Assembly (NCBI GenBank): GCA_024137785.1
Contig: JAHRHZ010000073.1
Location: forward strand, 5,194,250 to 5,258,249
Length of the DNA: 64,000 nucleotides
Direction of reading: 5' to 3'
Origin: Ginglymostoma cirratum
Taxonomy: Eukaryota
The notes below the pieces were generated by a model. The model was given only the letters and a program-made list of their open reading frames with translations. It made no database searches and was not told the origin of the DNA. Position numbers and translations under genes: made by a program. Shown here one piece after another: positions 15,298 to 41,497 of this stretch; the first letter of the stretch is position 1; each line of letters begins with the position of its first letter.

Positions 15298-15409
15298 ATG
15301 GTTTCTAAGGAAATTGGTGCACTTATACTATCGCTGTCTTTGAACCTGGTTTACGGAACAGACTTTATCAGATATGTCTATCCAGCCTATAATATAAAAA
15401 GTTACGGAG
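15298..15409 (+). CDS. col10a1: col10a1 copy 1 first coding exon (exon starts 15291): signal peptide + start of NC2, MVSKEIGALILSLSLNLVYG/TDFIRYVYPAYNIKSYG
   Basis: Acceptor tttttttacattttag|, caacATGg start, donor ggag|gtaagt (phase 1); SLNLVYG resembles mammalian COL10A1 signal end SLNLVHG; paralogous to 62809-62911. Confidence 0.9.
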
Positions 15410-18400
15410 GTAAGTTCATATTTTGTTCTGAAATATTTAATAAACAAGATGGCTGCGGCTTATTCAACATGAGATAACACCAACAGATGATGGTGACGAT
15501 TCACTTCAGTCCAACGTGATCATGCGCCAAAATGAAGCGTGATTAAACTTTGTGCTAAAGTTTTGAAAACTATTGAAAATTTTTCAAAGAGATGACAACA
15601 TTCATCCAGCTTGAAAGTGGAAAACAGAACTAAAACTTCATGCTGAACTAGTTCGTATGAAAGCATATGCACCATCGGTTATCAAGGTCTCCAACATTCA
15701 TTATTGTAGAAGAATTTTGAGAGATCTCTGGAGGGTTCCTTGTGTGGGAAATCATCAATCACCACCTAAGCCTAAACACCCAAAGCACATTGTCTCATTG
15801 TATGAGCATTTGCACTAAAACAATAATCCTACGCCAGACATTTATTTATGACATGCACAATGCTTCTAAATGATAAAAGTCAGTCCAACAATACTGTCAA
15901 TCTTGCTGAAGGGTATCATTCACCTCAAAGTCAAAGGGGTATCAGTTCAAATGTCACCTCAGCAATTGCATATTTGAGTAAACAGTGTAGCACTGAGTAA
16001 ATGTTACATTGCCAACAGTTTTGCTTTTTTGGGTAACCTGTTAAAACTAGGCTCCAGCTGTCAATGGAGATGGATACGAAATAAGAGTCGGGGTAGTGTT
16101 CTGATATCCTGGTCGATACTACCAAAACAAATAAGTTGGTCATCCCCACTTGGCAAACTGGTTCCTACAGTTACCTACAAAACAACACTTTAGAAGCAAA
16201 ATCTATGTGACGTGCTTTAGGACATCTTGAAGATATGAAAGATGCTATTTTAACTTTAATCGACTGGGTTTGCATAATTCCCAACAAAAAAAAAAAAACA
16301 AACTGCCATCAGATTACTTTGTTCAGACGTTGCATGTTAGCATGCAGGCTCTAAAATGCTGTAGAATTTCTAGTTTGCTTAGATGATATGCACATAAAAT
16401 GGACTAAATACAAAAATATCCAAGAATTCTTCATCTAGAATTTGGGAGCTATTTACTGTTGGGAGTTTTTCATTATTACGCCCAGTGAATCTAACAGCAA
16501 TCTCAACGTTGAGTGCAAATTCAGATTAACATTAATGCTATACCATATGCTGTGCCATTAACTTCCATCCACCCCCCTTCGAGCAGTCAGCAAAATCACT
16601 TTATCAGGCAGAAATTCCCCTTACCCACCCTCAAAACTGTTAGCTCTAAACAAAGTAAAATCTTCTTCGAAGAGATGTAACTGAGTTTTTAAAAAGATCA
16701 GTCGAGTAATAGTTAGTACTAATGAGCTGATGTGGCCCTGAAAATTACAAATCAAAATCACATATCATATGTTACACCTTGAATGATGTTACATATCTCC
16801 ATTATAACTAACAACTAGTTTAACATTTTTGTTTAATTCAAAAAAAGGCATAACGCCTGGACAAACCGATTTCCTTGCAGACAGCAGATTCCTGCCTGTG
16901 AATAAGTGTAGCTTCCAGCAGGCGTAAGTAAGTAACAATAGTTCCTTGGCAGATTGTCTTTGGAAAATCATGACCAAACCGTCATCTGCAAGGAAATCAG
17001 AACACACTTTTCATGCAATATAAATTGTTGCCCCCTTTGAAATTTGGCATTCCTATGTCTGAGTTGCAAACAATGTCCATTTTGTTTGCAAGGTATTGCT
17101 GAATAATTCTGCATGTTTCAGGCACGTTAACAACTCAGTTATTGCAAAATGGAATACAATATGCGGTAAAAATCCATCACTTCTGCATAATACCATGATT
17201 TTCAGAATGAAAAATATTAACGCTTGAAGTGGAACTTTCCCATTTCAGGCATCCTTCACTGCCAACACACAAATAGAAACACTACATTGAGATGCGCAGC
17301 AAGGTTCCTTCTACATTGCCCAACAATTCAACTCAGAACAACACTGCTCACTAAATCTACTTTGCACAGATCACACAAATCACTGGAACAAGATTGACAA
17401 CTTAATGCTTCAAAATTGCCTGGACTCATTTCACATTGGCCTCCAAAAGCCAAACAAAAGAAAATCCAATATTTTAGAATAGGCTGGATCTGAATCTAGG
17501 TCCAACAAGTGAAGGACTAGCGTGCTACATAAAGAAAGCATTGCATGACTGCAAAATCGCGTTGTGAACCAGAAATACAAGTTAAAACCTGATGTTCAAC
17601 ACATAAAACGAGATATGTCGTACTGAATCTAATTATCAATATTTCTTTATAAAAAATATTTTTATGAACACTGCAACAAAATGATGTTGTAATGTTGTCT
17701 TACTGTGGCTGTTTGGTAACTTTCACTTATGTCCAATTGAGCTGTGGCTGGAATGCACAGCTTGCCACCATTGGATAAACTGCTACAGAAATTTGAAAAT
17801 ATTCTGGCAGGAGACCTTTTCTAGAAAGGAAAAATTTTTCTTTAAGAAAACAATTCTCAAGGTAATTGCAGCAAAAGTAATATCACTGAGACTCACTCTC
17901 TACGCAAGAGGAGAACAGTTAAGCAGCAGCAAAGAATAAATCATACAAGTCAGAAAAAAGAACAGGAACCTACAAAATTTACAGTAATGTTTGTGTCCGT
18001 TACTGACTAATGAATAGTTTTTCTATTTCTCAATCAATTAATTATTCAACTTACAGATAGTTCACTGGCGCAAATGCTACAAGTTGAAAGATTATAATCA
18101 ACAACTTCTAGCCAAGTAAAATGGCATTACTTTCAACTGTAAATTGAAGCTTCAGTCTGATAGTTTCCATATTTAAAGTTAAGATGCAACTTCTAACTTA
18201 CATGAAAGGTGAAAATCCAAAATCAATTTAAATGAGTTCAATTTAATTAAATTTGTCAAAGTACAAATTTTCAAAAATTTAGATTCAGCCTTTGGACCTT
18301 ACTTTTAAAACAAAGTGTTCTACTAGTCAAATTAAGATCTTTTCAATTTTTTTTTAGAAATGAGTGGAATAAAAATGTAGCACTCATCAACTCAAAGATA

Positions 18401-18959
18401 CCACAGATTGATGTCCTTTCATTTGAAACAAAATGCAAAGCATTTGATTTCTGGGAATTTCTGAATTTTCCAACTACAATTTTGCTGGCACAATATGAAA
18501 GTATTACCCTCGGCAGTGTGACAGCAGGAAAGGATAATTAATCACCGGAAGCAAAATTTATTATCCAGCCATTACCCCAAATGTAATGATGACAAATTAG
18601 CCAGTTCTATAAAGAGCAAAAATGTACTTCTAAGGCAAATAAATGAGTATATACTCAATTCTACAGTATTGCTGTTTTGAGTTTTACAAGTGCATGTACC
18701 TTCACTGATGATCTAGAGATTCACTGCAGTCTCTTACGATGAAGATTTTAAGATTTACCATAATCAGTAACCATTTTCAGCCAAATTCAAATCCAAACTA
18801 AAATAATATTGATAAGTAAAGATTACACCTCACTTCTGTGACACAGAATACTGGATGTAGATTTTTCTTTATTTCAACATCAGTGCGAAGACAGACAGCA
18901 TAAATCAATTAAAATATTTTGTTTGTTAGATTAGTCCAGTCTTTGCAGGAAAAGTAAGT

Positions 18960-19385
18960 CCGACCTCATATCATTCACCATTATCACCCATGCTCACCCA
19001 AATATGCAATTGCCCTTTCCCAACAATCTTGATTTTAAAATTCTTATCTTTGCTTTGAAATCTCTCCATTGTTTCAGTTTTATAGATCTTTGTAAACATC
19101 TCCAGCTACCCATCTCTCCACTTTTTTTCTATTCATCTAATCCTTGCATATTGATCATCCTAAACTTTATTCACTCAATCACTTGAGGTGTGCCCTCAAT
19201 TTCCTGGCCACTAAACTTAGCAAAGTGCTCCCTACAATGCTTTATTTCCTAACTCACCTTTCTCCTTTAAAATGCTCCTTTAAACACACTTCTTTAACTA
19301 AGCTTCTGGTTAAGCTTGGTAATCTGCCATAATACCTCTTTATGAGGCTTGGGGCCCTAAATGCCCACGTGAAGCAATCTGGGCC
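18960..19385 (+). mobile_element. Degenerate L2-like LINE 3' fragment
   Basis: ORF 19004 LDFKILIFALKSLH resembles the L2 ORF2 C-terminus. Confidence 0.55.
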
Positions 19386-21722
19386 ACTTAAGTTGAATAA
19401 ATTAACCCTGCTCAGGTGTTGTCAGCAATTTTTTGAGAGACTAGGATATGCCCGAGTTGCCGGTGGCTTCACTGTGAACCTTCCTATGAACGTCAAGAAA
19501 CTGATGGTTTTGTGCCCTGAATACAAATTAACAGTGACACAGTTATTTCAGGTTGCTTTTACACAGCACAAATCCCTGACATGGTTTTGAATCTTGGAGG
19601 CCTAGGTAAGGAATAACTGAAACCATGGAGGCTCACTATGCTCATCAGATCAAAAATGGCTCATGCAAACTCAAGAACAAAACCTCACCTTCCCTTCTGT
19701 CTCTTTGTACTAATCCATTAATTTTCTTTCCCTTTCTTAAATTGATTTTTCTCTATCTCATTTAATTCAAATTCACTCTCTCTTCCTCTGTCATTCAGTC
19801 CATTTCTTTCCTTTCTTTCAATTTCATTGGCAAGGAGATAGAATATTTGTTGTAATGTTTGAGCTTCCAAATGCACCACTGACCTCAGACTATTGTTACC
19901 AGCTCACAACTTCAACATTTTATGGTGCAATGCTTAAAACATAGAAGTAATCTGAGGAACGATGAGGGGGGCAATGGAATCATGTATTTTTTTTTCCCAA
20001 ATGCACTAACCAAAACAACACCAATGCATTAAAAAAAAAATCAGATGAACTAGAAATTGCAACATATTTTGGCAAAATTTGCTTATGAATGGACCACCCA
20101 TCATATGTAACTTTCTGCTTTGTTATACAGAAACTAATTTTAGTTATAATTAAATTTAAAAGATAATAATTTTAATTTCAAGTTTTTGTTACTAGTAGGA
20201 AACCACAGGAAACAGTTACATAGGTACAAGATCATGAGCATTACACGTGCAGGCATGTAGATGATATTGGCACTTCGATGTCATTAGTTTTTACATGATT
20301 CTGTTGATTATCAGCTGCAGCCCCAGAGATGTTAGCATTAACGCCACTTCTCTAAGAATTCTATTAATCTTCCTAAATTATGATGGACAATCAAGAGAAG
20401 CCCACCTCCTGCAGAATTTCAACCCTTTCTTTCTTTAAGAATTTGTCTAAGGATCTTTGAAGTTTACATCAGTCTTATGATACCAAAATGTCTTTTCTTA
20501 CTTTTGCAAGTTAAGTTGTTCAAAGGATTGAGAGCGCGGTTTTCACTTACTTGATTCGTTTCAGTAATCCTGCACATCGGACAAATTGAATAACTTATTT
20601 TCATCCTGACTTCTTGTGAGCAAAACACGTGGGAGAAGGGGCTAATGAAAGGTGACACTTTCAGTCCAACCTGGTACGAGTTGACTTTCGACAGGTTATT
20701 TTTACCTGATGCAGCGATGCTTATATTATCTAATGAAATATAGGAACCAGTGTTGATATTGTGATACTGAAGTATCCAACAGACATTTATTTCAGATAAT
20801 TGCATACAAACATTATATTTACAGGAACAACGTCTGAGCTACAATTAAGCTAATAGTTACAATATAGCAGCATGGTTTCAATAGCACTATGCATCAAGTG
20901 ATCCAAGATGGACTATAAGATATTCAAAGCCTCAGATCACATGCTAAAATAGTGATGTCATCTCTTCAAAATTCCCCCCTCAGAATCATAACACAACATA
21001 ACCAATGCAACTTACGCTGAAATAATCTGACAACTGTGACAAGCTGACCTTTCACATTTCGACAATCAACCAAAGAGAGGAAATGTTGGAAAACTGGTAA
21101 AGGAAGCATTTCCTTTGTACATCCGGATGTCACCAGCTTTAATCTCAAGCTGCACCTGAAGGCCCATCTGACATTCCTCAGGGTTCAGTCAGCTCTATCA
21201 AGAGTGGTACCTCTGAGTCAATCTCGGGATAAACACTGAAGTATCCCACCCAAAGTATATTCTATCCCCTGCTGTCCTTCGTACTCCTTCCAGTGGTGTT
21301 TATCATGGAGGAATAAAACTGTTACCTGTTTGTTTAGTGTGTTACTTGGAACAGGAGATGCAAATTACAGTTTAAATTTACAGCAATTGAAATGCTCAGA
21401 AATTTCTACAGTTTGTTGGACAATCTACAGGCCATATTCATATTGCTAAATGTTTGTTCCTGGATTTTGAAGCTAAGTTTCCGTAAAATTCACTTAAGAA
21501 CTAGTTCCTTGCTGTATTACGCTTTAACTCAGCTTTTGCCACACTTTAACTGAATCAAATAATTCTACTAGCATAATCTGTTTTACCGCACTCTCAATGT
21601 TAAACTGAGAAACTCAAAGAACAATGGCATTCCTTCCAATGCTTTTGATGATCATTACCGCACTTCTACAAGGTAAAAAATACAGATTTAGACATTAACT
21701 CATTTTGTTTTTCCTAAACTAG

Positions 21723-21794
21723 GTAATGAAGTAAACTTCCCTCATTCATTGAGCAATGAAGACAGTGAACACAACAGCAATTCAAAATCTGCAA
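21723..21794 (+). CDS. col10a1: col10a1 copy 1 mini-exon A (72 nt): (G)NEVNFPHSLSNEDSEHNSNSKSA
   Basis: Acceptor ttttgtttttcctaaactag|, donor gcaa|gtaagc, phase 1-1, open frame; start and end resemble mini-exon B. Confidence 0.75.
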
Positions 21795-23232
21795 GTAAGC
21801 TATACTCAGTATTTTGACATAGAGCAGTATTGTTTTTTAAAACAGACACAAGCTGAAGTGAACAATGCAAATTTACACTAAACGGCACTGGCATCTTGTT
21901 GTTATTGACTGCTCGTGTTTTAGACAGTGAAGAATTTATTAAGAACTATGCACATCATTCTAATATTTCATATCTGTAAGATCTACTTCCATTCCTAATT
22001 CATATTTTCATATCTGAAACGAAAATTCAAATATCAAGGCCACTATAAAACATAAAGCAAATGCCTGTTGTTCACTCAAAGCACAAAATCATTTTCATGT
22101 TTGATCAATCTTAAAAGAAAATAGAGACCAATTAGGAACCAATGAAGGGCCTAATTGTCAGTATCTAGCTCTGTTCTTAGATTTGTCTATTTGTCAACAT
22201 ATGCCTTTAATAAAAATGCTCTTTATGCCATCATTGCTAACATTAGTGGTCTCAAAATAAAGTTACATGCCCATGACCGTTTGTAGAACAGAGAAGCAGA
22301 TTTCTAGTTATTTTTTCCAATCCTCCTTAATTATACAAATTATAATACGGGACATGAGTAGTTACTGCAATACGTTTGCTCTTTTGGAAGAGTTCAATCC
22401 TTTGAGGTGTCAATAATAGTTCTATTGGTACACTTGATAATCTCAAAATCCATAATGTATCGGCATGTGAATATCCATTTCAGTCATTTTAAGTCAAGAT
22501 TTTCAGACCTTTGCAAAATAGGAGTCTCATACAAGTACGGACGTGATAGAATAGGCTTGTGCACACCCCGCACCCACCCCGGTCTTAATCAATTATGTTC
22601 CAGTAATCATAACTCTTCGTTGAGTGCATACACTTTCACAGTTTAATTTGTGTTCGCCTTTTAATTTCCCAACAGTCTGGCCACTGAATCTATTTTATGT
22701 CTGCTACACTAGTTAATCTAGCCTAATTGAGGGAAAACTCCCAGAATCTATAATTCAATGTAAATTAGTAGACACTAAGAAGTACAACTTTGTTTAATCT
22801 TCGTTTTCTTCTAAAAATGTAGAGGTAGAGACGCTGCTTTGGTTGAGGGAAAATTAAAGAAACATTTCCAGCAGCCAAAGACTTAGGGGCAGTAGGGTTA
22901 GTTTTGGATTACTGTAGCATACAGCATTGCAGACATCAGTCAACGGTTTCAAAATTTTATCATATTATGAATCCATCGTCAGGGCTCCGAAAAAAAAAGA
23001 AGTAAAATTACCTTACGTTGAAAATGATGCGCTGATCTTTTATGTACTGCAAATGGTTTATTGCTCATTAAAGCCATGGACAAGACAGAATTTGAAGACT
23101 TATATCTGAAAGACTGAATCCATCCTGTTTGATGCTTGCTCAAAACTTAATGCTTTGACCTTTGCCTTTCCTATTCCTAACTGAAACTGACAATATGTAG
23201 TGTCCCTTGATCCTCAGACCTTCTCCATATTA

Positions 23233-23572
23233 TGGGGAGGCAATGTCCTAGTAATTTTATTGCTAGACTATTAATCCAGAAACTCACCTAATATTTTGGG
23301 GAAACAAGTTCAAAACCTGCCATGGCAGATGTTGACATTTGAATTCAATAAAGGGTCTAATGATGATTAAACCATTGTCGAATGTTGGACAAAACCCAGC
23401 TGGCTCACTGCTGTCCTTTACGGAAAGAAACTCCCATCCTTACCTAGTCTGGCCTACGTGAGACTCCAGACTTCAGCAATGTGGTTGATTCTTAATTGCT
23501 CCCTGGGAAATTCGGGATGGGTGACAAATACTAGCTTAGCCAAAGGCACCCACATTCCAGGAGTAATTAAAA
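23233..23572 (+). mobile_element. tRNA-head SINE (DeuSINE-like)
   Basis: Homologous to 29695-30017 and 54660-55047; tail resembles the LINE 3' end at ~56560-56650. Confidence 0.65.
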
Positions 23573-23689
23573 ATTCACTAAAATAATCTGTGACCTTATC
23601 ATTACCATGACTGAAAAACACATTTATGCCTTTGACACTCTTAGACCCAACTTCCCAAGGATATTAGAGGATTAGCAAACTAATAGTAG

Positions 23690-24725
23690 ACAGTGTTTGG
23701 GATGAGGGGACATTTACAGGATGGCAACCTGTAACCAAAAGAATGCCACAAGGATTCGTGCTGAATAACATTATGGAGAGGAAGAACAGAGGAGCTGAAT
23801 ATTATTTAAATGGATAAAGACTGTAGAAAAATACGGCAAAGGGGAATTTGGGAGTTCTTGTACGTAATTCACGAAAAGCTAACATACAAGTTGAGCAGCT
23901 AATAGGGAATGCAAATTAAATCTTGGCCTTTATTTCAAAGGGAATGAATTACACAAATAGACAAGTCATGCTAAACAAGTCACAGGCTGGATCACACCTA
24001 GATTACAATCAACAGTTTGGGTCTCCTTATCTAAGGAAAGACACAATAGCATTAGAAGCAGTCCAGACAAGGTTCATTAGGTTAATCATGGGTATGCAGG
24101 GATGGTCTTATGAAGGGCCTGTACTTATTGTAGTTTAGATGAATTTAGTTTAGAGGCAACAAGATTCTTACGGATAACACAGTGTGGAGCTGGAGGAGCA
24201 CAGCAGGGCAGGCCGCATCAGAGGAGCAGGGAAGTTGAAGTTTCAGGTCAGGGCCAAAACGTCAACTATCCTGCTCCTCCGATGCTGCCTGGCCTGTTGT
24301 GCTCCTCCAGCTCCACACTGTGTTATCTCTGACTCCAGCATCAGCAGTTTTTAATATCTTCAAGATTCTTATGGGACTTGTCTGGGTCAATACAGAAATG
24401 TTGTTTCCTCTGTGGAAGAGTCTAGGGCCAGAGTGCAATACTCAGAGTTAAGGGTCACCCATTTAAGTTAGAGAGGGGGAGGCATTTTGTTCTCTCGGAT
24501 GGCAGCAAATTTGTGGAATTCTTTACTGCAGAGTGCTGTAGAGACTGGGTCATTAAGGATATTCAAAGCTGGGATAGACAGACTTCTACTCAATAAGGGA
24601 ATTGAGGGTTACATGGAAAATGCAGAAGAGTGAAGTTGAGCATTCAGATCAGCCATGATCTCACTGAATAACAAAGTAGGGTCAATGGAATGAAAGGCCT
24701 ATTCCTGCTCCTACATCTAATAGTC
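23690..24725 (+). mobile_element. CR1-type LINE 3' fragment interrupted by a nested insertion
   Basis: ORF 23923 ...QFGSPYLRKDTIALEAVQTRFIRLIMGM.. is CR1 ORF2-like. Confidence 0.8.
24171..24360. mobile_element. Palindromic Penelope-like insert nested in CR1, 11-bp TSD
   Basis: Inverted arms gataacacagtgtggagctggaggagcac... / ...gtgctcctccagctccacactgtgttatc; caagattctta at 24160-24170 and 24361-24371. Confidence 0.75.
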
Positions 24726-27199
24726 TTCTTTTCACTTGACCCCTAAGATCCATCCAACTCAATGCTCAACCACCTACATCCATGTTGCCTGAATTCCTGC
24801 TCACTTGATTTTCACCTACTCATTTTTTTGCAGCCTCTCTTCACCAAGTTTCCAAACATATCCTCCGCACTGTTAAACTTCATGGTCCTGCATGTTTGCC
24901 CTTTGTCCGATCTACTATAGTTAATACAGCCTCCGGTCAACTTTACCACATATTCTGAAAATATATCTTTAGATCCTTCCCTCATGTTATATCTATTACC
25001 TCCCTAAAAGCCTTATATTTCAACAGTCGACCTTCCAACTGTTCGTCACATTCGCCACAGTCCTACCAGACCATCAGACTGCTTTCTCTCTCTGTCTCTC
25101 TCTCTCATTAGAGATGACTGGTGGTGGTTTAACTTGAGGGTCACCACACCTCAGCCAAGGGGAGAGGCTGAGACAGGGATCCCCACATACTATAAAACAC
25201 CTTGGTGTACTTGTTATGTTAAAGATTTGTCATCGGTATTATCTGCTGCTGTTGTTGCCATTTGCTGACAAGAGTCATACGCGGAATAAAATGATTTCAG
25301 CAAGAAATTGGTGGGTGGCAGAGCTCCAGCAACTAGTGTCAAAAAATGCTTTTGCAGGTGGAAGAAAATTAGCAAAGAAAAGATTAATCATTAAAAGTGT
25401 CATGTACCTTTAGAAATGATGAACGGATTGATTTGTCAAAATAAGATGAAAACATCATTTAAGAACAACAACTGGATACAGTTTCAACAAACTAAATTAA
25501 CAATGCAGGTTTCTTTTTACATAACTGCGCTGCTGTAAGTGTCTGTATTATGGGGAAATATTAAGTACTAAAATATTTTTTATTTTTGTAACAAGTCAGG
25601 TCAACAGGTTTAATTTTGTAAACAGTGGTCAACAAGTTCTTGATTTATACAACATCTATGTTTTATACACTGGTAGTTAATGTTTGATAGAGTAAGTCTC
25701 CATTGACCACCACAAGAACACACTTTCCCTCTACCTAAACTGTCAGAAAAGATGTGCTTTCTTCAGAAATTTTCAGTTCCTGATGTTTTTTGTACATCTT
25801 GAAATATTTAATTTAAAAATATGCAATTTAGAGTATAATTGAATTGTTTGTGCTTTTTAATGTTGGTTTTAAGGTACATTGAGAGAAGAAACTATGTATG
25901 TATTTAGGCTATCTAAAAATGGAATGCTTTTCATACTTGAAGTTACTGTGCAAACAGAGCACAAGTTGGGAGGTGATAGTTGCACCCTATCTCAAAGCCA
26001 ATATAAATAATACCTGTGGTGTTTTACATCCAACCACTGTCTCTCACTCCTTTTTGGAAACCATAGGGGAGTTTAACACGACACACTATTGCAACAGAAT
26101 CTGAGCTCGTTACATAGGGTTTCGCAACAGATGTTATAACAAAACTCAACCTAAATGGGATGTTGGGGAAAGTCAAAATAAATCAATTGTGCACCCTATT
26201 GTTAAAGAGCAATACAACAGTATTGTAATAGCATGTCAGCTGCCTTGGTAAGACCTAACTCTAACCTGCAGCACCATGATTGGCTTGAGTTGTTGCTGAC
26301 TGCTGGTATAGTAAAATATTCTGATTAGACAAGAATTTTTTGAGACTGAAACCATCTTATTTGTCCGTCAGTAGTCACACCTATATACCCCCGATTCAGA
26401 CCCCTTCTATCTAATTTGCTCCTTACTTTGATTTGATTTAACTTTGATGCAACCTCAGTTCCTGTCCAAACCTCATTGAGTCTTAAGCCTTATTTGAGAT
26501 TCAATGCAGAAGTCACCTTCTTCCAAATACAAAATAGTGATGACTGCAAAAGAAAAATCATACAAAAGCTTTTATCAACTCCAGGATCGATTCACCATGA
26601 GAAATAGGAGCATTAGGCCATTCAGCTCATCAATTCTGCTCCACCATTCAATGAGATCAAGGCTGATCTGATAATCCTCAATTCCACTTTTCTGCCTTTT
26701 CCCCATAACCCTTAAAGCCTGACTCACTTCCCTTTGACTGCTTCACTTTTTCCAAAAGTTCAACTTATCAAGAACTCTGAAGACTGAGACATTTTGGACA
26801 CAAAGTACGAGCAGAAATCCCCCGTCAACTTCACTAGCTTCAGTGCCACAGAAAATTGTTTCTTGGATCCTCATCTAAGCTTACAAACTACTCAATAAGC
26901 TTATACAAGCCTCTTCAGCCCAATGTGTTCTGTTCTAATGAGCCAATGTCTCGCACAGCCCCAAGTTAACAAAACTGAAAACGCCTCCTATAACTTGTGG
27001 TTGCAGCCAATAGGGCCAGAATGGAAGATGATTCTCACTTCCCGAAATATTTGGGATAGGTTCAGTTGATTTTAAACAAACAGAAGTTCTGACACATGCT
27101 CGGCTTGATTTGAGAAGTTTAGCAGAATTGTTTTTCTCAGATTGAACAATCCATCTTCCTTAGAAATTTTTCCACCATAGGAGGTCCACCTCCAGTTCT

Positions 27200-27960
27200 T
27201 ATTCTCAGCCCATTATAAAGCTCTTTGGAACAAGTTTTATTTCATTATATCCATCCCTTCAAACAAACCAATTCTTTGGCTATGCCATTAATTTGCTTCC
27301 CATTACAAATTCATCCATTCTCTCTACATTTCGGGTGATATTTTTCCTTCAATCTTTTTTTAACTTCCGACTTCTTACCTTAAATCTATGCCGCCTCGTT
27401 ACCTACCACCTCCACCAAAGGGAAAAGATTCATCCCATCTAGACCCAGCACAGTTTTGTACACTTCAACCAGGTCCTCACTCAGGATTCTCTACTCTGAG
27501 GAAAATACTCTCAGCCTACCCAGTCTCTCCGCATAGTTAAAATGCTCCAACCCAGGCAACATTCTGGTGAATAGTCTCTTCTGCGTCTTTCTAGCGCAAT
27601 AAATTCCTTCTCATAACGTGACAACCAGATCTGCACACAGTACTCTGGTTGTGACCCAGCTAATGTCTTGTACAATTCCATCATAACCTCTCAGCTCTTG
27701 TACTCAATACCTTAACTATTAAGACCAAGTACCTCATATGCCTTCTTAACCATATTATCTATCTGTCCTGTGCTTTCAAGGATCTACGAACATACTCACC
27801 AAGGTCTCTCTGATCCTCCGTACATTCTAGCGTCTTATGGACTCCCTTGCCTGTAAGGCCTCCTGAAATGTATTACCTCTCACTTTTCAGGATTAAACTT
27901 CATCTGCCACTGTTCTGCCCATCTGATCAACCCCTCTTTATTGTCTAAGGATTTCCTCCT
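27200..27960 (-). mobile_element. Decayed CR1-type LINE fragment
   Basis: Similar to 2200-2580 (accagatctgcacacagtactc... is the reverse of EYCVQFWS). Confidence 0.65.
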
Positions 27961-28452
27961 TGCTTTGTATTAGTGTGGGTTCGGAGTTTCTTTTGGGCCT
28001 GATTATTTAGGCTGCATTATGATCATTTTGTCAGCACATTCTAACAAGATTAGGAGGATATTTTGATCCAATATCTGTGTTATACCCAAAGAAGTAGCTG
28101 AAGCCAGAATTTTTTTTTAACCTAATTCTTCACCCCTGTTAAAATTTCCACAGCTACTTCAATTTCTGCAATACTCTTAGCTTAATTCAAACTGTGCACA
28201 ATCAAGACATTATGCGAATTGAGATCATAACTTCTTGTCCTACTAAGTCTGATGCCTGAAGCAATACTGCAAATTAGGTGGGCTTGTATTACTATTTTAT
28301 AACTGTGCTCAAAACTTCTTTTCTAAAAAAAAAAATGACCTGACGAAAATTAGAATGGACAGAACTGCTCCCTCTAAAGCACTTCTTTTAATAATATTGT
28401 GAAAAAGTGTAGATATTCACGTATTTGTAATCTTTTTCTTTCCCTGAAATAG

Positions 28453-28515
28453 GCAATGAATTCAAAGGGAATAGTGGACCAAGCGATGAAAACAATGGTG
28501 ACTCTAATTCAGCAA
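28453..28515 (+). CDS. col10a1: col10a1 copy 1 mini-exon B (63 nt): (S)NEFKGNSGPSDENNGDSNSA
   Basis: Acceptor tctttttctttccctgaaatag|, donor gcaa|gtatgc, phase 1-1; homologous to exons C-E (x-x-KG...E-N..NG.SNS). Confidence 0.8.
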
Positions 28516-29029
28516 GTATGCTCTTTTTAATAATAAGTTTCATTCAATATTCACATTAATTACGGTTATGTGAGCTATACAAATACTTTATAGCTGCTCC
28601 TTAAGTTCAAAAATTCAACTTACAGTCTTTGAAGATGGCTTAAAATCTTTATATCAAAATCTTGCATAAAACACAAAAACGTCAGAGCGATAATAATGTT
28701 TATTATTATTTTCCAAAACAGGTTATCAAATAAAAGGGAAATACTCGTGGAGGATTGATGACAATGGGCAAAATGGCGACTCAAATTCCGCAAGTATGCA
28801 AGATTTAAGCTTAACATGTATGACAGGTTTATTTATCCAAGAAATAAGCACCTTTACACTCACTGTTAAAAGCTCCAATTATCAAAGTTTGATATGAAAT
28901 CAGAAGAGCTAACTCGAGAAACCCACTACATATTGTCATTCTCTTGCCATAAATATGACAGGAGCATAGTAGAAGTAATGAAAAATAAGTCAGATCTTTC
29001 TTGTTACAGGTCTGTAAAAACCACAACAT

Positions 29030-29480
29030 ATAGAAAGCAGAATCAGGCCATTCGACTCATCAAGTCCGCTCTGCCATTTGATCAAAGCTAATACGTTTCT
29101 TAACCCCATTCTCCTGCCTTCTTCCTGTAATCTTTGATCCCCATACTGATCAAGAACTTCCGTTTCTCTGTCGTAAAAATACTCAGTTACTTGCCTCCAC
29201 AGCTTTTCGGAGCAATGAGTTCCACAAATTCACCAGTTTCTAGCTGAAAAAAAAATCATCCTTCTATCATCCCAGCATTTCTAGCCACAGGGAGCTGTGG
29301 GGCAGGTTTTATATATAAGGCTAAGATAGATAGATTCTTGATCAGGAGGAGAATCAAGGGTTACAGGCAAGAGCAGGAAAGTGGGCATGAAGATTGTTGG
29401 ATCAGCCATGCTCTTAATGAATGGTGAAGCAGATTTGACGGGCCAAATGGCCTACTCTAGCTCCTATTTCTTCTGGTCTC
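29030..29480. mobile_element. Two LINE 3' ends in inverted orientation (29030-29260 minus, 29290-29480 plus)
   Basis: Both match the CR1-type tail family; partly reverse-complementary. Confidence 0.6.
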
Positions 29481-29694
29481 TAGGTGGATTTCTTTGCAGT
29501 GAAATGTTGCCAAGTACTTTGATGCTTGATTTGCAGTACCAAAATTCAGGTCCAAACCTGGGTCCTTGCATTTACTCTCCAAATGACCCAATAGAGTCTA
29601 TGCATACATATAGAGTTAGGCTGCTAGAAGCAACAGTTGTTCAGATAAAACTGGCTAGCATTGTTTTTCCTGATTCCTTCAGATTTTATTTACC

Positions 29695-30017
29695 AGGGAG
29701 GCAGTAGCCTATTATAGCTGGACTTTTAATCTAGAGGCTCAGGTAAAGTTCTGGGGACCAGTGTTCAAATCCCCAATAGCAGATGGTGGAATTTGAATTC
29801 AACAAAGGCAATCTGGAATTAAGACTCTATTGATGACCATGAAACCAATGACAAGAAGGAATCCATCGGGTTCACGAACATCCTTTCGGGAAGGAAAATG
29901 CTATCCTTTTCTGATCTGGCCTAAATGTGACTACAGACCTGCAGCATTCACCCTTAACTGTCCTCTGGGGAATAAATAATTGCCTAGCCAGCGACGTTCA
30001 CATTCCATCAATGAATC
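29695..30017 (+). mobile_element. tRNA-head SINE (DeuSINE-like)
   Basis: Homologous to 23233-23572. Confidence 0.65.
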
Positions 30018-32552: not shown

Positions 32553-32601
32553 ACAGTAAACATAGTGTGGCAAAAGATCATTCCAAGTACTTTAAATCAT
32601 A

Positions 32602-32720
32602 TTTTCTAAGGATTTGGATTAGATTTGTAGCTTGGGTTGTGGATGTTGAGGTTGGTTGGCTCGCCAAGCTGGTTCGTTGCGGAACATCAACAAACCAGCT
32701 CGGCAAGCCAACCAATTTCA
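32602..32720. mobile_element. Short hairpin insertion with aatcata direct repeat
   Basis: ttgaggttggttggctcgccaagctggtt / aaccagctcggcaagccaaccaatttcaa inverted; aatcata at 32595-32601 and 32720-32726. Confidence 0.55.
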
Positions 32721-34809
32721 ATCATACTTATATGTCACATTCATTACAATGTAATGAAACAAAATGTTACTTACTTCTAAGATCCTGATTAATACAAGAT
32801 ATTGTGCACAGGCTAATAGCTTACAACATCCCTATTTTCATGACTTGTAATTCCCTGCAGTTTTCTGAAAGTATTTTTCAGCTTCATATCAATTGCTGGT
32901 TCTTGACATATGTTCTATCAGGCTTAAATTTTTATACATTACCAACTTTAGTTAAAACTCTTTAAATCTATTTTGTATGTATGGAAAAACTAAACAGAAA
33001 GCTAATCCCAGCAACTAAATAAGCTATTTAAATTTAACCCATTTTGTAAACAGAAAATCTATCAACAAAAGGAATGGTTAATATGGAATAAATTGTTGTG
33101 GTACATCTGGCATGAATCAAACATGTTCTCAGTAGTGAAGTCTTCTCTACTCAATAGTTTACTTCATACAAATTGTCAACATGAATCTGCTATAAATTGT
33201 TATCTTTATCAATTCTCTCAGAGGAATGCCTCATGATCAGCTACACATTCCTTTCTAATGTCCTTTAGTGCCTCCCATCTTCCTGCTCTTGTATCTATAC
33301 ATTTCATGCTTGAACACTTCCAGTCTACCTTCTTCACTTTCACATCCAGCAAACAGCCTTTTTTCAAAATCCTCTCTAGTGTCATCTATGATGATGACCA
33401 GTAATACTTTCTTTCCTCGTCCACTTTTGTGACATCCTCCTTCAATGAACTGTGGCATTTAAGAAAGAACTTGCATTGATCTGACATTTTGTCAGAGCCT
33501 CAGGATATCAGAATGTGCTTCACACCCACTGAAGAACACTTGATGTGTTATCACTTAGATAAATTAGAGGAAAACTGTAGCCAAGTTGATTTCAGCAAAG
33601 TCCCATACAGTGAGAAAAAAAAATCACAATCTGTTCTACTCATATTTGTCAAATTGATACAAAAAAGTCCATGAAATTGGGAAAACTCAAATTCCTGTTT
33701 CTCAGAAAGCTTTAGTATAATGTTCATCTAAAAGGTGTCATCTCCAGCCTGATCATTATGCTTGTAAGGCACAATAATTTCCAGTAGATGTCAGTGTCTA
33801 GCAATGGGAACACGGCACAATGTTCTCGCTTTGCCTGTAGGACAAACTGTAACAACTATTTTTCTATTTGGAATGGGAACTTACTAATTTAGCAGAGATA
33901 GTTGCTAACCCCTATCACTAGGTATATTTACTCATAATTTAATTGCCTATAATTTTGTTCTTAAAAGTTAGTTTGAAGATTGATATGCAAGATCAATCTA
34001 ATTTCATTTTTAGTTTCTTTTTCTACAACACTAAATAAAGCTTGGTATCCACAGCAATTTCTCAAATCATTCCAATATCTGCTCAGAAATGCTTTTTATA
34101 CCAGTTCAAGTTTCAAAATAAGCCATTTCAAAATCCATGTTGCATTAGCTTTTCTGTGCATACAGTTGCTGCCCTTGAGCTTCTTTCCAGCAGTCCTGAG
34201 CAGCAAAGAGCTTCAATATAGGTGTCAAAAAAATTGAATGCAAGTTCACGTGAGATCAAGTTGGCATAGGGGGAATTTTTTTTCCCCATTTTGTTTCAAT
34301 TCCAGTTATGGAATCTTATATACCCATAGCACACAAACATTCAGAGATACATTTCCTGTTATTTTTAAAACATCAGAAAAATAGACATATCTAAACAAAC
34401 AGAAGCAAAAAAAATTTGAAATGCTCTACACTGCCAAGGAAAAAGTATTTTTTATTGCAACATCTATACACCTAAATTGTCAATAATAACACAAGCATAA
34501 AATAGCATCAGCACATGTTTACAAAAGGTACTTTATTACCCAGATTAAATACATGGCTATTTATGGACCGTCAGTTGCACACAGTTCACATATAAGTTGA
34601 CAACTTGAGTTTTGAGTTCAGCCTTTTGAGTGATATGAAAGATTGTACTTGACTAGCATAATTTTCTGTACAATAAACCCATCTCAATAAAGTCATGATG
34701 TGTGAAAATACACATTTGTTTACTTTGGCAGGAAAAATAGAAAAGCTTAATACTATTCACATGGAGAGATTGCAGGGCTTGGTGGTACAGAGGGATTTCC
34801 AGAAAACCG

Positions 34810-35460
34810 ATCATGATAAAAATTAGTATACAGGTATGCAGCAACTGTTCAAAGGCATTGAGAATGCCGGTGCCAATTGGAAAAACCGAATATAGAAATA
34901 GGGAAATTTTTTACAGTTGTGCAGGGCCTTCAGACCACATCTGCAGTACTGCATACATTTCTGGTTTTCTTCCTTGAAAATCGCTTACATAGTGGTTCTG
35001 AAAAGGTTCATTCAACAAATTTGAGATGAAGGACTTTTCCTAGGAAGAAAACTTGAACAGACTGGGGTTAAACTCACTTCTAGTTTAAAGGAATGAGAGG
35101 TGAACTTATTGAATCATTTACAATCTTGAGGGGAGTCTATCGGGAAGATACAGAGGATATTCCCTCTTCCGGGGGAGACTAGAATCAGAGGACACAGTTT
35201 AAGAACAGGAGATCCCCTTTAAGGCAGTGACGAGTAAGGAACATTTTCCAGAAAACGTTAGTCTATGGAAGACTCCTCCCTAAAAGTAGTAGTAGCTTGG
35301 TCATGGAATTTATTCAAAGCAGAGTTAGATGGACTTATGATAGACAAGGAAATCAAGGGTTTTGGGAACAGACAGGAAACTGGAATTGTAACCACATGAA
35401 AACCAGCCACGATTTCGTAAAATGGTGAAGGCGGCTCAAACGGCCAAATAGCCTCTGAAT
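34810..35460 (+). mobile_element. Decayed CR1-type LINE 3' fragment
   Basis: agaccacatctgcagtactgcatacatttctgg (RPHL.YC..FW) and tail similarity. Confidence 0.7.
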
Positions 35461-35995
35461 AAAGGGAAAATTGCAAAGTGACTCAGCAAAAATCACTGGT
35501 GCACATCTTAGTGTTTGGTCATAATCACAAAGGAGCAAAACAAGAATCCTTGAAGAAGCTTGTTTATTCAATGTCACCAATAGGAAAGGGCATGGCTGGA
35601 CGAGATCTCAGAAGAGACCAATACAGCCTACGAAGCACTAAAATAACCAAAACAGAAATTATACTTGTTTTCCTCACTTATATGTTTCCTGCTCACCAAA
35701 AACAATCGGTAAATCATTCTGATTAACAGGAAACACCAATGTGTTTCCAACCACACACAAGCAAAAAGCTTTTCAATTTTAATAATTTAAAGCTATCATT
35801 CACAAAGAAACAAGCTTTTGTTGTCTATATATAATAGACCTGACAATTAAAAGCGCTGCTGGGGTTTATAATTTATAACCATTTTTAAAACTTATGAAAG
35901 TATTTATTTCAGGTTTTATCTGTTGACTGCAATGTACTTTAAGCAAAAGTGCTTGAAAAAATTCAATGAGGTTAATTTTGTCTTTCTATAAACAG

Positions 35996-36067
35996 GTCAT
36001 GAAACAAAAGGACAATATTCACAAAGGTCTTCTGAAGAAAATGAACAGAATGGTCATTCCAATTCTG
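35996..36067 (+). CDS. col10a1: col10a1 copy 1 mini-exon C (72 nt): (S)HETKGQYSQRSSEENEQNGHSNS
   Basis: Acceptor ttttgtctttctataaacag|; clear paralogue of D/E; the homologous donor reads ctaaat, and a weaker in-phase GT (tctg|gtacta) lies 3 nt upstream. Confidence 0.55.
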
Positions 36068-36494
36068 GTACTAAATAACAAGTCACTTTATTTGTCCTTT
36101 CAGAACACAGGCACACTTCAAATTTAGCAATGGGACAAAGACAGTTTCTTTGTAAAAGTAGTGAACTTGTGCACAATAAATGCAGAATTAAGGGCCATGC
36201 GCTGTTAACCTAAATGCTGAGCATTCAAAACTCAAAGCAAACTGTGAAACTGGACTGAGTTAACCCAGATTGTGAAAAACTAAATGGGTCATTATATTGA
36301 GTTGGAAACAGCAGACTACCATCCTTTATCAGTCTGGCATACAGGTGTATCCAGTTGTTATACTACATGGTTGACTTTTAATTTTCAGTGAAGTGGTCGA
36401 GCATGTCAGCCACTCAATTAGCAATGAGTATTTGCTACAGAAATTAGCAATAATATTGGATGGTCAGATGAACACTAGCCTTGTCACCATAATA

Positions 36495-36634
36495 AAGAAC
36501 TGCAGGTGCTGGAAATCTGAAACAAAAACAAACTCAGGTCTGGAAGCATCTGTGGAGAGAAAGCAAACCTAATGTTAACTGAGTCTTTCTGCACAGATGC
36601 TGCCAGATCTGCTGTGTTTCTCCAGCAATGTCTA
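36495..36634. mobile_element. Palindromic Penelope-like insert with ~16-bp TSD
   Basis: ccttgtcaccataata 36479-36494 / ccttgtcaccacaata 36635-36650. Confidence 0.7.
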
Positions 36635-36950
36635 CCTTGTCACCACAATAGACAGTGCAGCAATCTTACAGCAGTCAGCCTGGAAAAAGTCTGACAGCTG
36701 GTAACCCGGTTGGGAGACTAGCACACCAGGGTTACAAAAACTAATTCAATGCCTGGTTTAAATCTGTTAATTGGAGTAGATAGACAACAGTTACAAGTAT
36801 ATTTAAAATTTCCAAGTGTAAAACTCATGATAAATTATGCTTCATCAGCAATTTTATGTTTTAATTTAAGAATCTTACTTTAAGTAGTGCACATTAACAA
36901 ATACTAAAACTAAAAAGCGAATACATTTATTTTGTGTACTTCCCAAACAG

Positions 36951-37028
36951 GTCAACAGGAGAAGGGACAATACCCGAGAAGATCATCTTCTGAAGAAAAT
37001 CAACAGAATGGTCACTCTAATTCTGGCA
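36951..37028 (+). CDS. col10a1: col10a1 copy 1 mini-exon D (78 nt): (G/S)QQEKGQYPRRSSSEENQQNGHSNSG
   Basis: Acceptor tttgtgtacttcccaaacag|, donor ggca|gtgagc, phase 1-1; 61/78 nt identical to exon E. Confidence 0.85.
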
Positions 37029-37439
37029 GTGAGCAAAAAATCCTTTTATTTCTGTAGAATAAAGTTGTTCTTTACTGGCTCGTGCAAATTACAAGTTCAT
37101 CAATGGTGTGAAGAAGCTTTCACTTAATTGCATGGAATAAACATGGAGTTGTGCTAATCAAAGTGTTGACTTCAAATCCTCTTTGGAAGAGTTGCCCTTC
37201 AGGAATGCATATTGAAAATAATTCAATGTCTAGCTTAAAATCTATTAATTAGAACAGACAGACAACAGTTACAACATATATTTAAAATTCCCTTCTGTAA
37301 AATCCACAATACAGACAATTAGTTCCTGGTGAAAGTTTTATTTTCAATTAGAATTATTGCTTTTATCATGCAATATTAATAAATGATCAAACTAAGAAGA
37401 GGATTCATCATGTTTGATTTTATTGTATATTCAAAATAG

Positions 37440-37517
37440 GCCAACAGATCAAGGGACAGTATTCAAGGAGATCATCTTCTGAAGAAAATCAACAGAATAG
37501 CGATGCCAATTCTACCA
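37440..37517 (+). CDS. col10a1: col10a1 copy 1 mini-exon E (78 nt): (S)QQIKGQYSRRSSSEENQQNSDANST
   Basis: Acceptor tattgtatattcaaaatag|, donor acca|gtaagc, phase 1-1; synonymous differences versus D. Confidence 0.85.
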
Positions 37518-37937
37518 GTAAGCTGTGTACTTTTATGCATGAGGCAAATTTGTCCTTATGTTGCATGAAACAAACAGGTCGATCCAAATTAATTGACATA
37601 CCATTTCTGTTATTGACTAACCTCAGGTGATATCATAGAAAAAAGGGGCAAGAGTAGGCCCTATGACCCTTCGAGCTTGCGCTGCAATTTGTTATGATCA
37701 GAGTTGATCTAACTCAGTATGCTGGTCCTGCTTTATCTCTACCCTTTATCCCTGAGAACTATGCCTAATTACTTCTTGAAAAATTCAAAAGGTGGGGATT
37801 TTAAAACTGCACTCATAACTTGCTTCTATAAAAATTGCGATGCAGACAGAAAAAGGTATTGAAAAGTAATACTTAGAATGTGAACGATAAAATGTCAAGT
37901 GAAAAACAACAGCTGTGTTTTATTTTTACTAAAACAG

Positions 37938-38033
37938 GCGATGAAAGTAATGGCCACGATTTAGAAGACATTGTGGAGAACAATAACTCAGATTTTTCTT
38001 CCTCTTCTTCCTCCTCCTCCTCTTCTTCTTCAG
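37938..38033 (+). CDS. col10a1: col10a1 copy 1 mini-exon F (96 nt): (S)DESNGHDLEDIVENNNSDFSSSSSSSSSSSS
   Basis: Acceptor tttatttttactaaaacag|, strong donor tcag|gtgagc, phase 1-1; splices in frame to EEEYGEPG. Confidence 0.85.
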
Positions 38034-39662
38034 GTGAGCTGTATGTAATTATCATATGCAGAACAGCAGAGTTCGAAAATACTATCAAGACCATATGAAC
38101 AAGAAAATCTATTTTTAATGCCCTTTCTCTACATATTAACTTGGAATACAGGTCTGATCAGCTATTTCATTATGGAAACTTGTCAAGATTCGGCTGGTCA
38201 TTTTGGCAAAACAATCAATATTCAACCACTTTATATTTCAGTTGTGTTTTGAGCATGGTGTTCAACCACTCAGGAACCACATTTTCTTGCAAACATTGGA
38301 AAAGATCAGAGATATGGAAGTAAGACAATTAATACTTCAAAGTAAAATAAATAGTTAAAACTAACAGTCCAATTGAAGTTATGAAGCTGCATTAAAAAAT
38401 TAAAAGAAATTAAACAAAAAGACAAATTTTTTTGCCAAACATTTTATTTGTATAACATAGGTTTAAATGTTTAAAACAATATACAGTAAACAGGCAGGTG
38501 TAGTGGGCTGTGAAGAAAAGTTTTTTCAAGACCAGACACAGACGGAACCAGACCTGCAAGTGAGTAGACAAATAAGTCACGGCAAAGTGGTCAGAGTGGC
38601 GTTATTTGTGATTGAGATCTGCCTTAGTAGTCTCTTGATTTAGAATAATGAATTTCATTTCACATGGATCCCTCAGTACTCCGTGCAAATTTTTACCGAT
38701 TTTAAAATATTGAGCTAACTACGGAGTTTTTACTGCTATTCTCTCCCCATAAAATTCTAATACAAAATAATCATAATGAGGCTAAAAGACCCATCTCACT
38801 TCTGGCATAGTCCAGCTATGGTCATAAATGTGTCAGAACTGAAATATAGTGTATCACAGCATTATAATGGTTGAGTGTAAAGGTCAGAGCTTCTACCAGA
38901 CCAGAACAAGACAACTGAGAAATACCTTATTAAAGCTGTAAGATTCCCTGTTTCCAGATGCTGAAAGGCCAGCTGGTTCAATTGCCTAAGTATGCTCAAT
39001 GGCATATATCTTTCCTGCTTGGGTTCCATGCCTACATAGAGACTTGGACTGTCCTTGGAAAATACACACATACATAAAAACATATATACTTGTTTCCTTA
39101 CAAAACAGGCTACAAGGACATTTAGTTTTCCTTTCCAGGGATGCAAGCATTTCACCTCTTTCCTGCTCACCTGTAATTCCTGCACCACCCCCAACTTCCT
39201 AGCAGTGACTGGCCAAATTTCCTGACTCGGACTGGATTTAAATGCCTCAGGTGTACCCCAATTCTGTGAAGACAGGAAAACCACTCCCAGCCAAGCCATT
39301 AATGTCCACCAGGGTTACTAGCAGAGGAATTCAATTCTTTCCTTCCTAAAATTAGAAGTGTTTTAATATAATCAGATCCTATTACTTGTATTCTAACGAT
39401 ACTACATCATCAGATACTCCTGAGCTTTAAAATGATACGTGAAATAATATTTCACCAGCCTTTCTTATCAGAAAGGGAACAGAAGAGCACTTCTTCCCTC
39501 GTGACAATGGCTTTGGTCACCTGAGGTATTTTGTGTAGTATAGATAGACTAGTGCAAACAAAAAAAATAATAGAATTCAATTCTTGCTGGAATACAACAT
39601 ATAGTGCACACTAATTGCATTCTAACACAACAACCTGAATGGCATTTATTTATTTTTAACAG

Positions 39663-41497
39663 AAGAAGAGTATGGAGAGCCAGGTCCACCAGGTCCACCT
39701 GGATTACCAGGACCAATTGGTCCACCAGGATACCCAGGAAAGCCAGGGTTTGGGCTGCCAGGTCATCCTGGTAAGCCTGGACCACCCGGACCACAAGGAC
39801 TATCAGCTATTGGAAAACCAGGCGGCCCAGGAGAACCAGGAAAGCCAGGTGTGCCAGGGTCTCCTGGCCGAAAAGGGGATAAGGGATCTCAGGGGATGCA
39901 AGGACCTAGAGGACCTCCAGGACCTAGTGGACCACCCGGACCAGCTGGGTTATCTGTTATTGGGAAACCAGGACCTAAAGGATCACCAGGTCCTCCAGGA
40001 ACACTTGGATTTCCTGGAAGAAAAGGGGATCCAGGATACCCTGGTTTACCAGGACCAAAAGGAGATAAAGGTGTTGGAATTCCAGGACGTCCTGGTGATA
40101 AAGGTGCTCCAGGACCACGTGGTCCACAAGGACCACCTGGTCCAGAAGGTAAAGGACTCAAAGGACCCCCAGGTCACAAAGGTGAACCAGGACACAAAGG
40201 TGAAAAGGGATCACCAGGGTCCCCTGGGCATCCAGGTAAGCCAGGCCAAGATGGTCCACCAGGACCACCTGGTAAAGATGGAATTGGGAGGCCTGGAATA
40301 CAGGGACCACGAGGAGTTCCTGGAATGAAGGGTCACCCTGGTCTGCAAGGTTTGCCAGGTTCACCTGGGTTGCCAGGTGTCGGAAAGCCAGGCCTTCCAG
40401 GACTCAAAGGACACCCAGGTTCTCCTGGATTGACGGGAAAGCCTGGAGATAAAGGAGAGAAAGGATCATCTGGAGAACCTGGACCTCGCGGGCCTGTAGG
40501 ACCACCTGGGTCACCAGGACCAAAAGGCCCAAAAGGTCCACCAGGTAATGTTGGTGCACCAGGAGAGAAAGGTCATCCAGGACTAAGGGGTCCAGAAGGG
40601 CCTTCTGGGCCAAAAGGTGAGCCAGGATCAAAAGGTGAGCAAGGAAAACCCGGGCCTCCAGGAAAGTCAGGTGCAGAGGGTAAAAAAGGAGGACCAGGTC
40701 CATCTGGTGAAAAAGGTGATAAAGGGCCTGTTGGGCCACGTGGCAAAGCAGGGAGTCCAGGTCCTCAAGGTCCTCAAGGGCCACAAGGGCCTCCAGGTAA
40801 ACCTGGAGAGAAAGGACATCCTGGATTACCTGGTTCAGTAGGTCTAACCGGGAGTCCAGGTTCTCCAGGACACCCAGGAGTGAAAGGAGATCCTGGGGTC
40901 CCAGGACCACCGGGTCCTCAGAGTAAATTTAATGCAAAAATCATAAAGGGGCCAAGTGGTCCACCTGGACCAAAAGGAGCAATTGGTCCACCAGGCATTC
41001 CAGGAGCCCCTGGTCCAGCAGGTCCACCGGGAGAAATTATTATACCAAAAGGAAAATATGCAGGTTATAGTGGTTACATCGATTCAGGTGGCGTGGTGAG
41101 TCCTGTTCCAGCATTCACAGCCATTCTTTCTCAGCCATATCCTCACAAAGGGCAACCAATAGTGTTTGACAAGATACTGACCAATTCAAATAACAACTAT
41201 GATTCATCAAAGGGAATTTTCACATGTGAAATATCTGGTATCTACCAATTTTTTTATCATGTACATGTTAAGGAAGCAAATGTTTGGGTGGCATTATATA
41301 AAAATGATGAACCTGTAATGTACACGTATGATGAATATACACCACAATACGTTGACCATGCATCAGGAACAGCTATCTTACATTTGGATGAAAATGACAA
41401 AGTATATGTACAATTACCTGCAGAAAAGTCTAATGGTGTGTACTCTTCTGAATATATGTATTCATCATTTTCTGGGTTGTTAATAACACCATCATGA
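39663..41497 (+). CDS. col10a1: col10a1 copy 1 terminal exon: Gly-X-Y triple helix with imperfections + C1q (NC1) domain
   Basis: Acceptor tttatttttaacag|, phase 1; helix start [22 protein letters not shown] is co-linear with COL10A1; NC1 [26 protein letters not shown] fits type X better than type VIII; helix and NC1 in one exon. Confidence 0.93.

Follow-up and report, generated by a model that had tools for sequence, protein, structure and literature searches.

In the mouse, collagen X is encoded by three exons, the third of which carries both the triple helix and the NC1 domain (PMC2134813), and the protein is a homotrimer (PMC2134813, PMC11930776). Cartilaginous fishes possess five or six tandem copies of Col10a1, in a cluster that extends up to 400 kb (PMC6759074). 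For one of these copies, Col10a1.5, Debiais-Thibaud et al. (2019) named a serine/glutamate-rich 'SE domain', likened it to DMP1 and the SCPP proteins, reported a CDD match of the domain to the DMP1 superfamily, and described expression in catshark odontoblasts; their discussion proposed that acidic and collagenous functions are combined in dentine and that the likeness to the SCPPs is convergent (PMC6759074). SCPP genes are themselves defined by a shared exon-intron structure, with introns mostly in phase 0, and by an origin from sparc-L (PMC9122587). Here we analyse a 64,000-nucleotide (nt) stretch of Ginglymostoma cirratum DNA (GenBank assembly GCA_024137785.1, contig JAHRHZ010000073.1, positions 5,194,250 to 5,258,249 of the forward strand; hereafter the window, whose own numbering we use). 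A gene at 15298-41497 (+) is, judging from its sequence, the Col10a1.5 of a close whale-shark relative, and its SE domain is spread over seven mini-exons.

The gene consists of a signal exon, seven mini-exons and a last exon, with a coding sequence (CDS) of 2478 nt that encodes 825 amino acids (aa). The first coding exon (15298..15409 (+), 112 nt) supplies the start codon, a hydrophobic stretch that by eye resembles a signal peptide, and the start of NC2, and ends in phase 1; it is identical to the horn-shark RefSeq model XP_067876004.1 at 34 of 37 positions. The last exon (39663..41497 (+)) is a single open exon for an interrupted Gly-X-Y triple helix, a linker, the C1q/NC1 domain and the stop, which is the short-chain layout by which a collagen X is recognised; Pfam places Collagen (E = 6.5e-65) and C1q (E = 5e-34) in 39665-41494, both above cut-off. 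A first-pass annotation of the same DNA had put six short exons between these two, and all six are there with AG/GT ends (72, 63, 72, 78, 78 and 96 nt; 459 nt), open in the frame of the signal exon. As it had said, the six-exon CDS runs for 2406 nt and 801 aa with no internal stop, and the motifs RSSEE, RSSSEE (twice), SNE, SDE, SHE and S12-EEE are all found.

The count of six, however, was one too low. A DNA profile built from the six mini-exons and their splice flanks and run on the window found a seventh at 28722-28793 (E = 5e-16), a copy from which the profile had not been built. Leave-one-out DNA profiles recovered 7/7 copies at 19.8-59.5 bits, the weakest family member being mini-exon 7 (37938-38033, 19.8 bits), against maxima of 7.6 bits in the rest of the window and 9.1 bits in ten shuffled windows. 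Neither a seven-copy profile, whose next match scored 6.4 bits, nor tblastn with the horn-shark domain revealed an eighth copy in the window; a weak tblastn match at 16154-16195 (E = 0.011) corresponds to a stretch of the horn-shark model outside the repeat units. The profile search was used in place of a rule-based exon scan, which top-ranked five of the seven mini-exons among 45 interval candidates and lost those at 37440 and 28722 to its pyrimidine filter.

All eight coding introns are in phase 1 and every mini-exon length is divisible by three, for a total of 531 nt or 177 aa. SE mini-exons 1 (21723..21794 (+), 72 nt, 21/24 residues identical to horn shark) and 2 (28453..28515 (+), 63 nt, 15/21 identical) are phase 1-1, and both are included in the printed whale-shark prediction. 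Mini-exon 3 (28722..28793 (+), 72 nt) is open, with AG/GT ends and phase 1-1, and its donor (CAA/GTATGC) is identical to that of the neighbouring mini-exon; it matches horn-shark residues 601-624 at 15/24 positions, in the expected order, has no internal S-x-E, and gives the serine for S-H-E at the next junction. Mini-exon 4 (35996..36067 (+), 72 nt, 20/24) carries RSSEE and a weak, apparently shifted donor; mini-exons 5 (36951..37028 (+), 78 nt, 23/26) and 6 (37440..37517 (+), 78 nt, 22/26) each carry RRSSSEE; and mini-exon 7 (37938..38033 (+), 96 nt, 26/30) ends in 12 serine codons that continue into the EEE of the last exon. Pairwise identity among the three RSSEE-type copies is 75-78%, and mini-exon 6 is a tandem duplicate of mini-exon 5 together with its upstream intron, the pair sharing 291 nt at 74.6%. 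A codon-position comparison, confined to two exon copies, counted 3 synonymous and 6 non-synonymous differences in 25 codons, with the upstream intron 73% identical versus 78% for the exon. Comparison with one another shows the seven mini-exons to be paralogous copies, which arose as a single small symmetric exon was duplicated in tandem again and again within the phase-1 intron, a process neutral for the frame.

The same array recurs in the horn shark. Queried with the C1q region, phmmer returned XP_067876004.1 as top match, with one shark cluster among the best 150 matches listed. Although its label is 'collagen alpha-2(IV) chain-like', this model joins a reverse-transcriptase fragment to two copies of collagen X, a misannotation that keeps the gene out of searches by name. 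Its first collagen copy has all seven SE units in the same order, with 144 of 179 residues identical (80%; 63-88% per unit) and S-x-E at 11 of 13 aligned positions. The seven-exon model fits the horn-shark sequence better than the six-exon one (score 723 vs 611; lengths 181 and 157 vs 180). A word-index protein search with the C1q region gave 6 matches among 343 candidates, all from bony vertebrates and none a shark Col10a1.5, and one with the whole last exon at E up to 1e-100 gave 1 match among 8000 scored, a teleost fusion model; the horn-shark SE region gave 0 matches among 7493. That these searches brought up no shark Col10a1.5 is a matter of low complexity and database content, not of absence.

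Among the tandem copies, Col10a1.5 appears closest, on pairwise C1q identities and near identity by eye to the printed whale-shark protein. The C1q domain is identical to that of the first collagen copy of XP_067876004.1 at 119/130 positions (92%), to the second at 94/130 (72%), and to three tetrapod collagen VIII/X records at 55-60%. By eye, about 9 substitutions and one 3-residue gap separate whale-shark Col10a1.5 (Supplementary Figure 3, PMC6759074) from the window protein, or some 98-99% identity over shared parts; the printed model matches both flanking exons, signal and last, and four mini-exons out of the seven, and also includes stretches that are intronic in the window. Two such stretches, 19567-19605 and 39626-39662, are coding in the whale-shark model and intronic yet open here; the former, phase 1-1 with a fair acceptor and a strong donor, is probably a prediction artefact there, since the horn-shark model has no counterpart. 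Immediately downstream, at 62809-62911 (+), the next tandem copy begins: its first coding exon has a phase-1 donor and a signal peptide of Col10a1.6 type that matches the Col10a1.6-type start running on from the whale-shark model, and the remainder of this copy falls beyond the window. This neighbour, together with the near identity to the whale-shark protein, is why we assign the window gene to Col10a1.5 of a close whale-shark relative. The collagen X locus is recognised by its position in or beside intron 6 of Nt5dc1, near Frk; of the cluster, the window contains only Col10a1.5 and the opening exon of its downstream neighbour. In the horn-shark model, that next, Col10a1.6-type copy has a short Ser/Asp-rich stretch ahead of the helix, which is missing from the short acidic motifs that the 2019 main text lists, those of.2 and.4 (PMC6759074).

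The composition of the SE segment agrees with this assignment. Between signal peptide and helix it holds 26.5% Ser, 11.0% Glu and 6.1% Asp, within the published SE ranges of 21-31%, 10-12% and 5-8% (PMC6759074). The seven-exon segment, of about 180 residues, is Ser/Asn/Glu-rich (29% Ser, 15% Asn and 11% Glu in the six-exon insert), with a net charge of -18 and an isoelectric point (pI) of 4.5. The six-exon insert contains 13 S-x-E, where 20,000 shuffles of the same composition lead one to expect 5.6 (p about 1e-4); SSEE occurs 4 times, a number reached in 0/20,000 shuffles. Three of the 13 S-x-E sites span exon boundaries, with serine encoded by the codon that the junction divides. The S-x-E density is 7.2 per 100 aa, and candidate phosphoserines would number up to 32 with an S-x-pS relay along the poly-Ser tract. 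The helix region (39674-41100) is strongly basic, with 46 Lys and 10 Arg vs 25 acidic residues in 470 aa (net +31, pI 10.15), so that SE domain and helix are opposite in charge. RGD is found 0 times in the 825-aa window protein and 0 times in the matching part of XP_067876004.1.

FAM20C targets S-x-E/pS in secreted proteins that include DMP1 and osteopontin, regulators of hydroxyapatite (PMC8348777), and in catshark the ameloblasts of teeth and scales express fam20C (PMC9122587). Col10a1.5 expression in catshark is found in the odontoblasts, again of both teeth and scales (PMC6759074). We favour, with a probability of about 0.7, a reading in which Col10a1.5 carries a FAM20C-phosphorylated acidic arm that is tethered to the collagen network, binds calcium or calcium phosphate and places apatite in dentine. 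The chain would be secreted (in catshark by odontoblasts) and trimerised through C1q; Golgi FAM20C would phosphorylate up to 13 primary sites per chain, and as many as 32 should an S-x-pS relay extend along the poly-Ser tract. The resulting polyanionic, probably disordered arm could then bind calcium and calcium phosphate on the collagen network and so set where apatite is laid down in the dentine of teeth and denticles. Both the phosphorylation and the mineral binding of the SE domain are inferred steps.

Several observations weigh against this tethered, mineral-placing arm. Our literature search found no phosphorylation or mineral-binding data for the SE domain, and catshark fam20C expression is reported for ameloblasts and, in the excerpt of PMC9122587, not stated for odontoblasts. 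Col10a1.5 expression is low, at 5 transcripts per million (TPM) in catshark jaw and 8 TPM in ray jaw (PMC6759074). Between window and horn-shark model, conservation is a little lower in the SE domain (80%) than in the helix (85%), with C1q at 94%. For horn shark and whale shark the comparison is with gene models, the former fused and including a reverse-transcriptase stretch and the latter lacking three of the seven mini-exons (PMC6759074); mini-exon splicing in Ginglymostoma cirratum is predicted from sequence and from these models. At transcript level, the only support for SE units joined to the helix is a thornback-ray Col10a1.5 from a jaw transcriptome assembly, in which repeat units, a poly-Ser unit and the helix are joined (PMC6759074); this transcript is 5'-truncated and covers the last SE units only. 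The catshark transcript record is 1235 nt, with its probe in the C1q/3' untranslated region, and so the catshark expression data do not show inclusion of SE exons; the SE part printed for catshark may have been predicted. Of 23 sequencing-run rows, 17 contain a portion of the last exon; none is on record as RNA, and for 11 of the 17 that label is a guess.

Whether every mini-exon is used bears directly on the length of the proposed arm. Because each is a multiple of three and all introns are in phase 1, the direct splice 15409>39663 is likewise open (1947 nt, 648 aa); the mini-exons preserve the frame, and do not restore it as the first-pass annotation had held, and the frame is no evidence of their inclusion. 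With every mini-exon frame-neutral and three left out of the whale-shark model, it is unlikely, though worth taking seriously, that some are skipped or dead in this species, leaving an SE domain that is shorter, variable or missing altogether. Such a fate would fall above all on mini-exon 4 (35996-36067), which is the least secure exon: its donor is weak (CTG/GTACTA), and the site aligned with the donors of its sister copies (36065-36075) reads CT and not the GT common to them, either because the donor has moved in this lineage, because the exon is decaying or because a base was miscalled. Even here, a weak in-frame GT is available three bases upstream of the lost donor, and an alternative in-frame donor would shorten the exon to 57 nt. 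All seven mini-exons have kept canonical ends and an open frame, and they share 63-88% of residues with the horn-shark units, whose order is the same, which argues for their use.

Less probable still is that the SE domain is a pro-piece, cleaved after secretion, whose free phosphopeptides inhibit or delay mineralisation like ASARM peptides while the collagen acts as an ordinary collagen X. The repeats do carry Arg-Arg-Ser, with two RRS sites each in the window and horn-shark domains, cleavage at units of 24-26 residues would yield similar peptides, and poly-Ser and ASARM stretches are present in SIBLING proteins (PMC8348777). By eye, however, the six-exon domain has no R-x-x-R furin site, and the longest Ser run adjoins the helix, after the last RR, and would therefore stay with the collagen. 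The opposite charges of the SE domain (pI 4.5) and helix (pI 10.15) suggest a further, improbable alternative, an acidic arm that binds no mineral and is structural, neutralising or cross-bridging the unusually basic helix and controlling solubility, secretion or the spacing of the network. Acidity alone would require neither S-x-E nor SSEE, which exceed expectation from composition and are conserved, and catshark expression is confined to mineralising odontode cells (PMC6759074). That exon shuffling brought the domain in from an SCPP gene or from sparc-L, as compositional likeness and the reported CDD match to the DMP1 superfamily (PMC6759074) might suggest, is scarcely credible and already disfavoured, given eight of eight coding introns in phase 1 vs the mostly phase-0 introns of SCPP genes (PMC9122587), the homology of the seven mini-exons to one another, the lack of RGD, and the absence of a Pfam DMP1 match in the horn-shark model XP_067876004.1 at E up to 10 or of any Pfam match in the 6/6 mini-exons tested singly at E up to 1 (all but mini-exon 3).

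The phase-1 introns and the mutual likeness of the mini-exons indicate that the SE domain grew by local exon duplication and not from an SCPP gene, and they favour the 2019 suggestion of convergence over exon capture. A more tentative proposal, on which we are nearly evenly divided, goes further: the SE domain would be a phosphorylation module made de novo within a collagen gene by serial duplication of a phase 1-1 mini-exon, with the seven-exon set kept one-to-one between the horn shark and this lineage. Each further copy would be neutral for the frame and could create a new FAM20C site where it is spliced to its neighbour. If cassettes, among them the one whose donor is weakened, were included optionally, the amount of phosphate on the collagen network could be adjusted. 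Serial duplication would then count as a third way, independent of the other two and in another intron phase, of arriving at an SCPP-like protein.

The architecture and its interpretation have been known since 2019. The first-pass annotation took a collagen X with an SCPP-like acidic domain to be undescribed; with that headline, a convergent shark dentine protein, already in print, named as the SE domain, compared with DMP1 and located in the odontoblasts of catshark (PMC6759074), the window observation is a rediscovery with a corrected gene model. The corrected model is useful because the public shark models we saw are fused or miss exons. The first-pass annotation's assignment of the domain to mineralised tissue is plausible and is the same inference as that of PMC6759074, but tesserae, which it had included, are an unlikely site, since in catshark vertebral mineralising tissue only Col10a1.4 was detected and Col10a1.5 was below 1 TPM in vertebra (PMC6759074). 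The 2019 main text, figures excluded, contains 0 occurrences of 'phosphoryl' or 'Fam20' and no exon structure of the SE domain, and relative to it the exon anatomy and the reading of putative FAM20C phosphorylation are additions. In the open literature, outside figures, we found neither a follow-up on Col10a1.5 nor the seven-exon, phase-1 anatomy, which may be an unreported detail that supports convergence. The S-x-E list supplies concrete candidate sites for FAM20C phosphorylation of collagen in shark dentine.

Elsewhere in the window, a 100-N assembly gap at 363-462 lies far from the gene, with none within 15298-41497, and an 81-bp tandem repeat (1.9 copies) at 10866-11021 falls within a 153-codon open frame upstream of it. 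There are a reading frame at 2324-2740 (-), dispersed repeats at 23257-29808, and inverted repeats at 24173-24327 and 32643-32725; 2324-2740 (-) and 23257-29808 resemble LINE/SINE remnants.

Set beside known systems, the window gene is most like the published Col10a1.5, with which it shares the order signal, SE domain, helix and C1q, the repeat motif and composition, and the downstream neighbour Col10a1.6 (PMC6759074). Tetrapod COL10A1 likewise has a signal exon and one exon for helix and NC1/C1q (PMC2134813), but its NC2 is 38 aa in mammals (PMC2134813, PMC11930776), versus about 200 aa and seven extra coding exons here. Acidic SCPP/SIBLING proteins (DMP1, osteopontin, DSPP) and caseins are also secreted and Ser/Glu-rich, with many S-x-E sites, SSEE/SSSEE clusters and odontoblast expression, and the signal peptide (by eye), the acidic region and the 13 candidate FAM20C sites of the window protein follow that pattern. 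Unlike them, the SE domain is fused to a collagen, has phase-1 introns, and lacks both the RGD of the SIBLINGs and a Pfam DMP1 match; nor does it appear derived from, or lie beside, sparc-L, since in place of a duplicated sparc-L 5' exon we find mini-exons that are mutual copies within a Col10a1 gene with a Col10a1-type signal exon, a judgement made with no direct sparc-L comparison. On sequence grounds, then, Col10a1.5 would work like an acidic SCPP but is not one. Elasmobranchs also possess their own scpp gene derived from sparc-L (PMC9122587), which makes partly outdated the earlier premise that cartilaginous fishes lack the expanded SCPP repertoire, and with this gene and the reported S-x-E-rich Spp2 duplicates (PMC13188829), Col10a1.5 is not the sharks' sole candidate for an acidic phosphoprotein. 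The acidic repeats of elasmobranch scpp and elephant-shark Sparc-L are, like the SE domain, an independent chondrichthyan gain of S-x-E-rich sequence (Leurs et al. 2022, PMC9122587), and elephant-shark Sparc-L has also amplified a 24-aa motif (PMC9122587). These genes differ from the window gene in locus and parent gene, in their ameloblast expression and in having their first three introns in phase 0, and published S-x-E averages for shark Sparc-L/Scpp are 1.7-5.1 per 100 aa (PMC9122587), vs 7.2 in the window SE domain.

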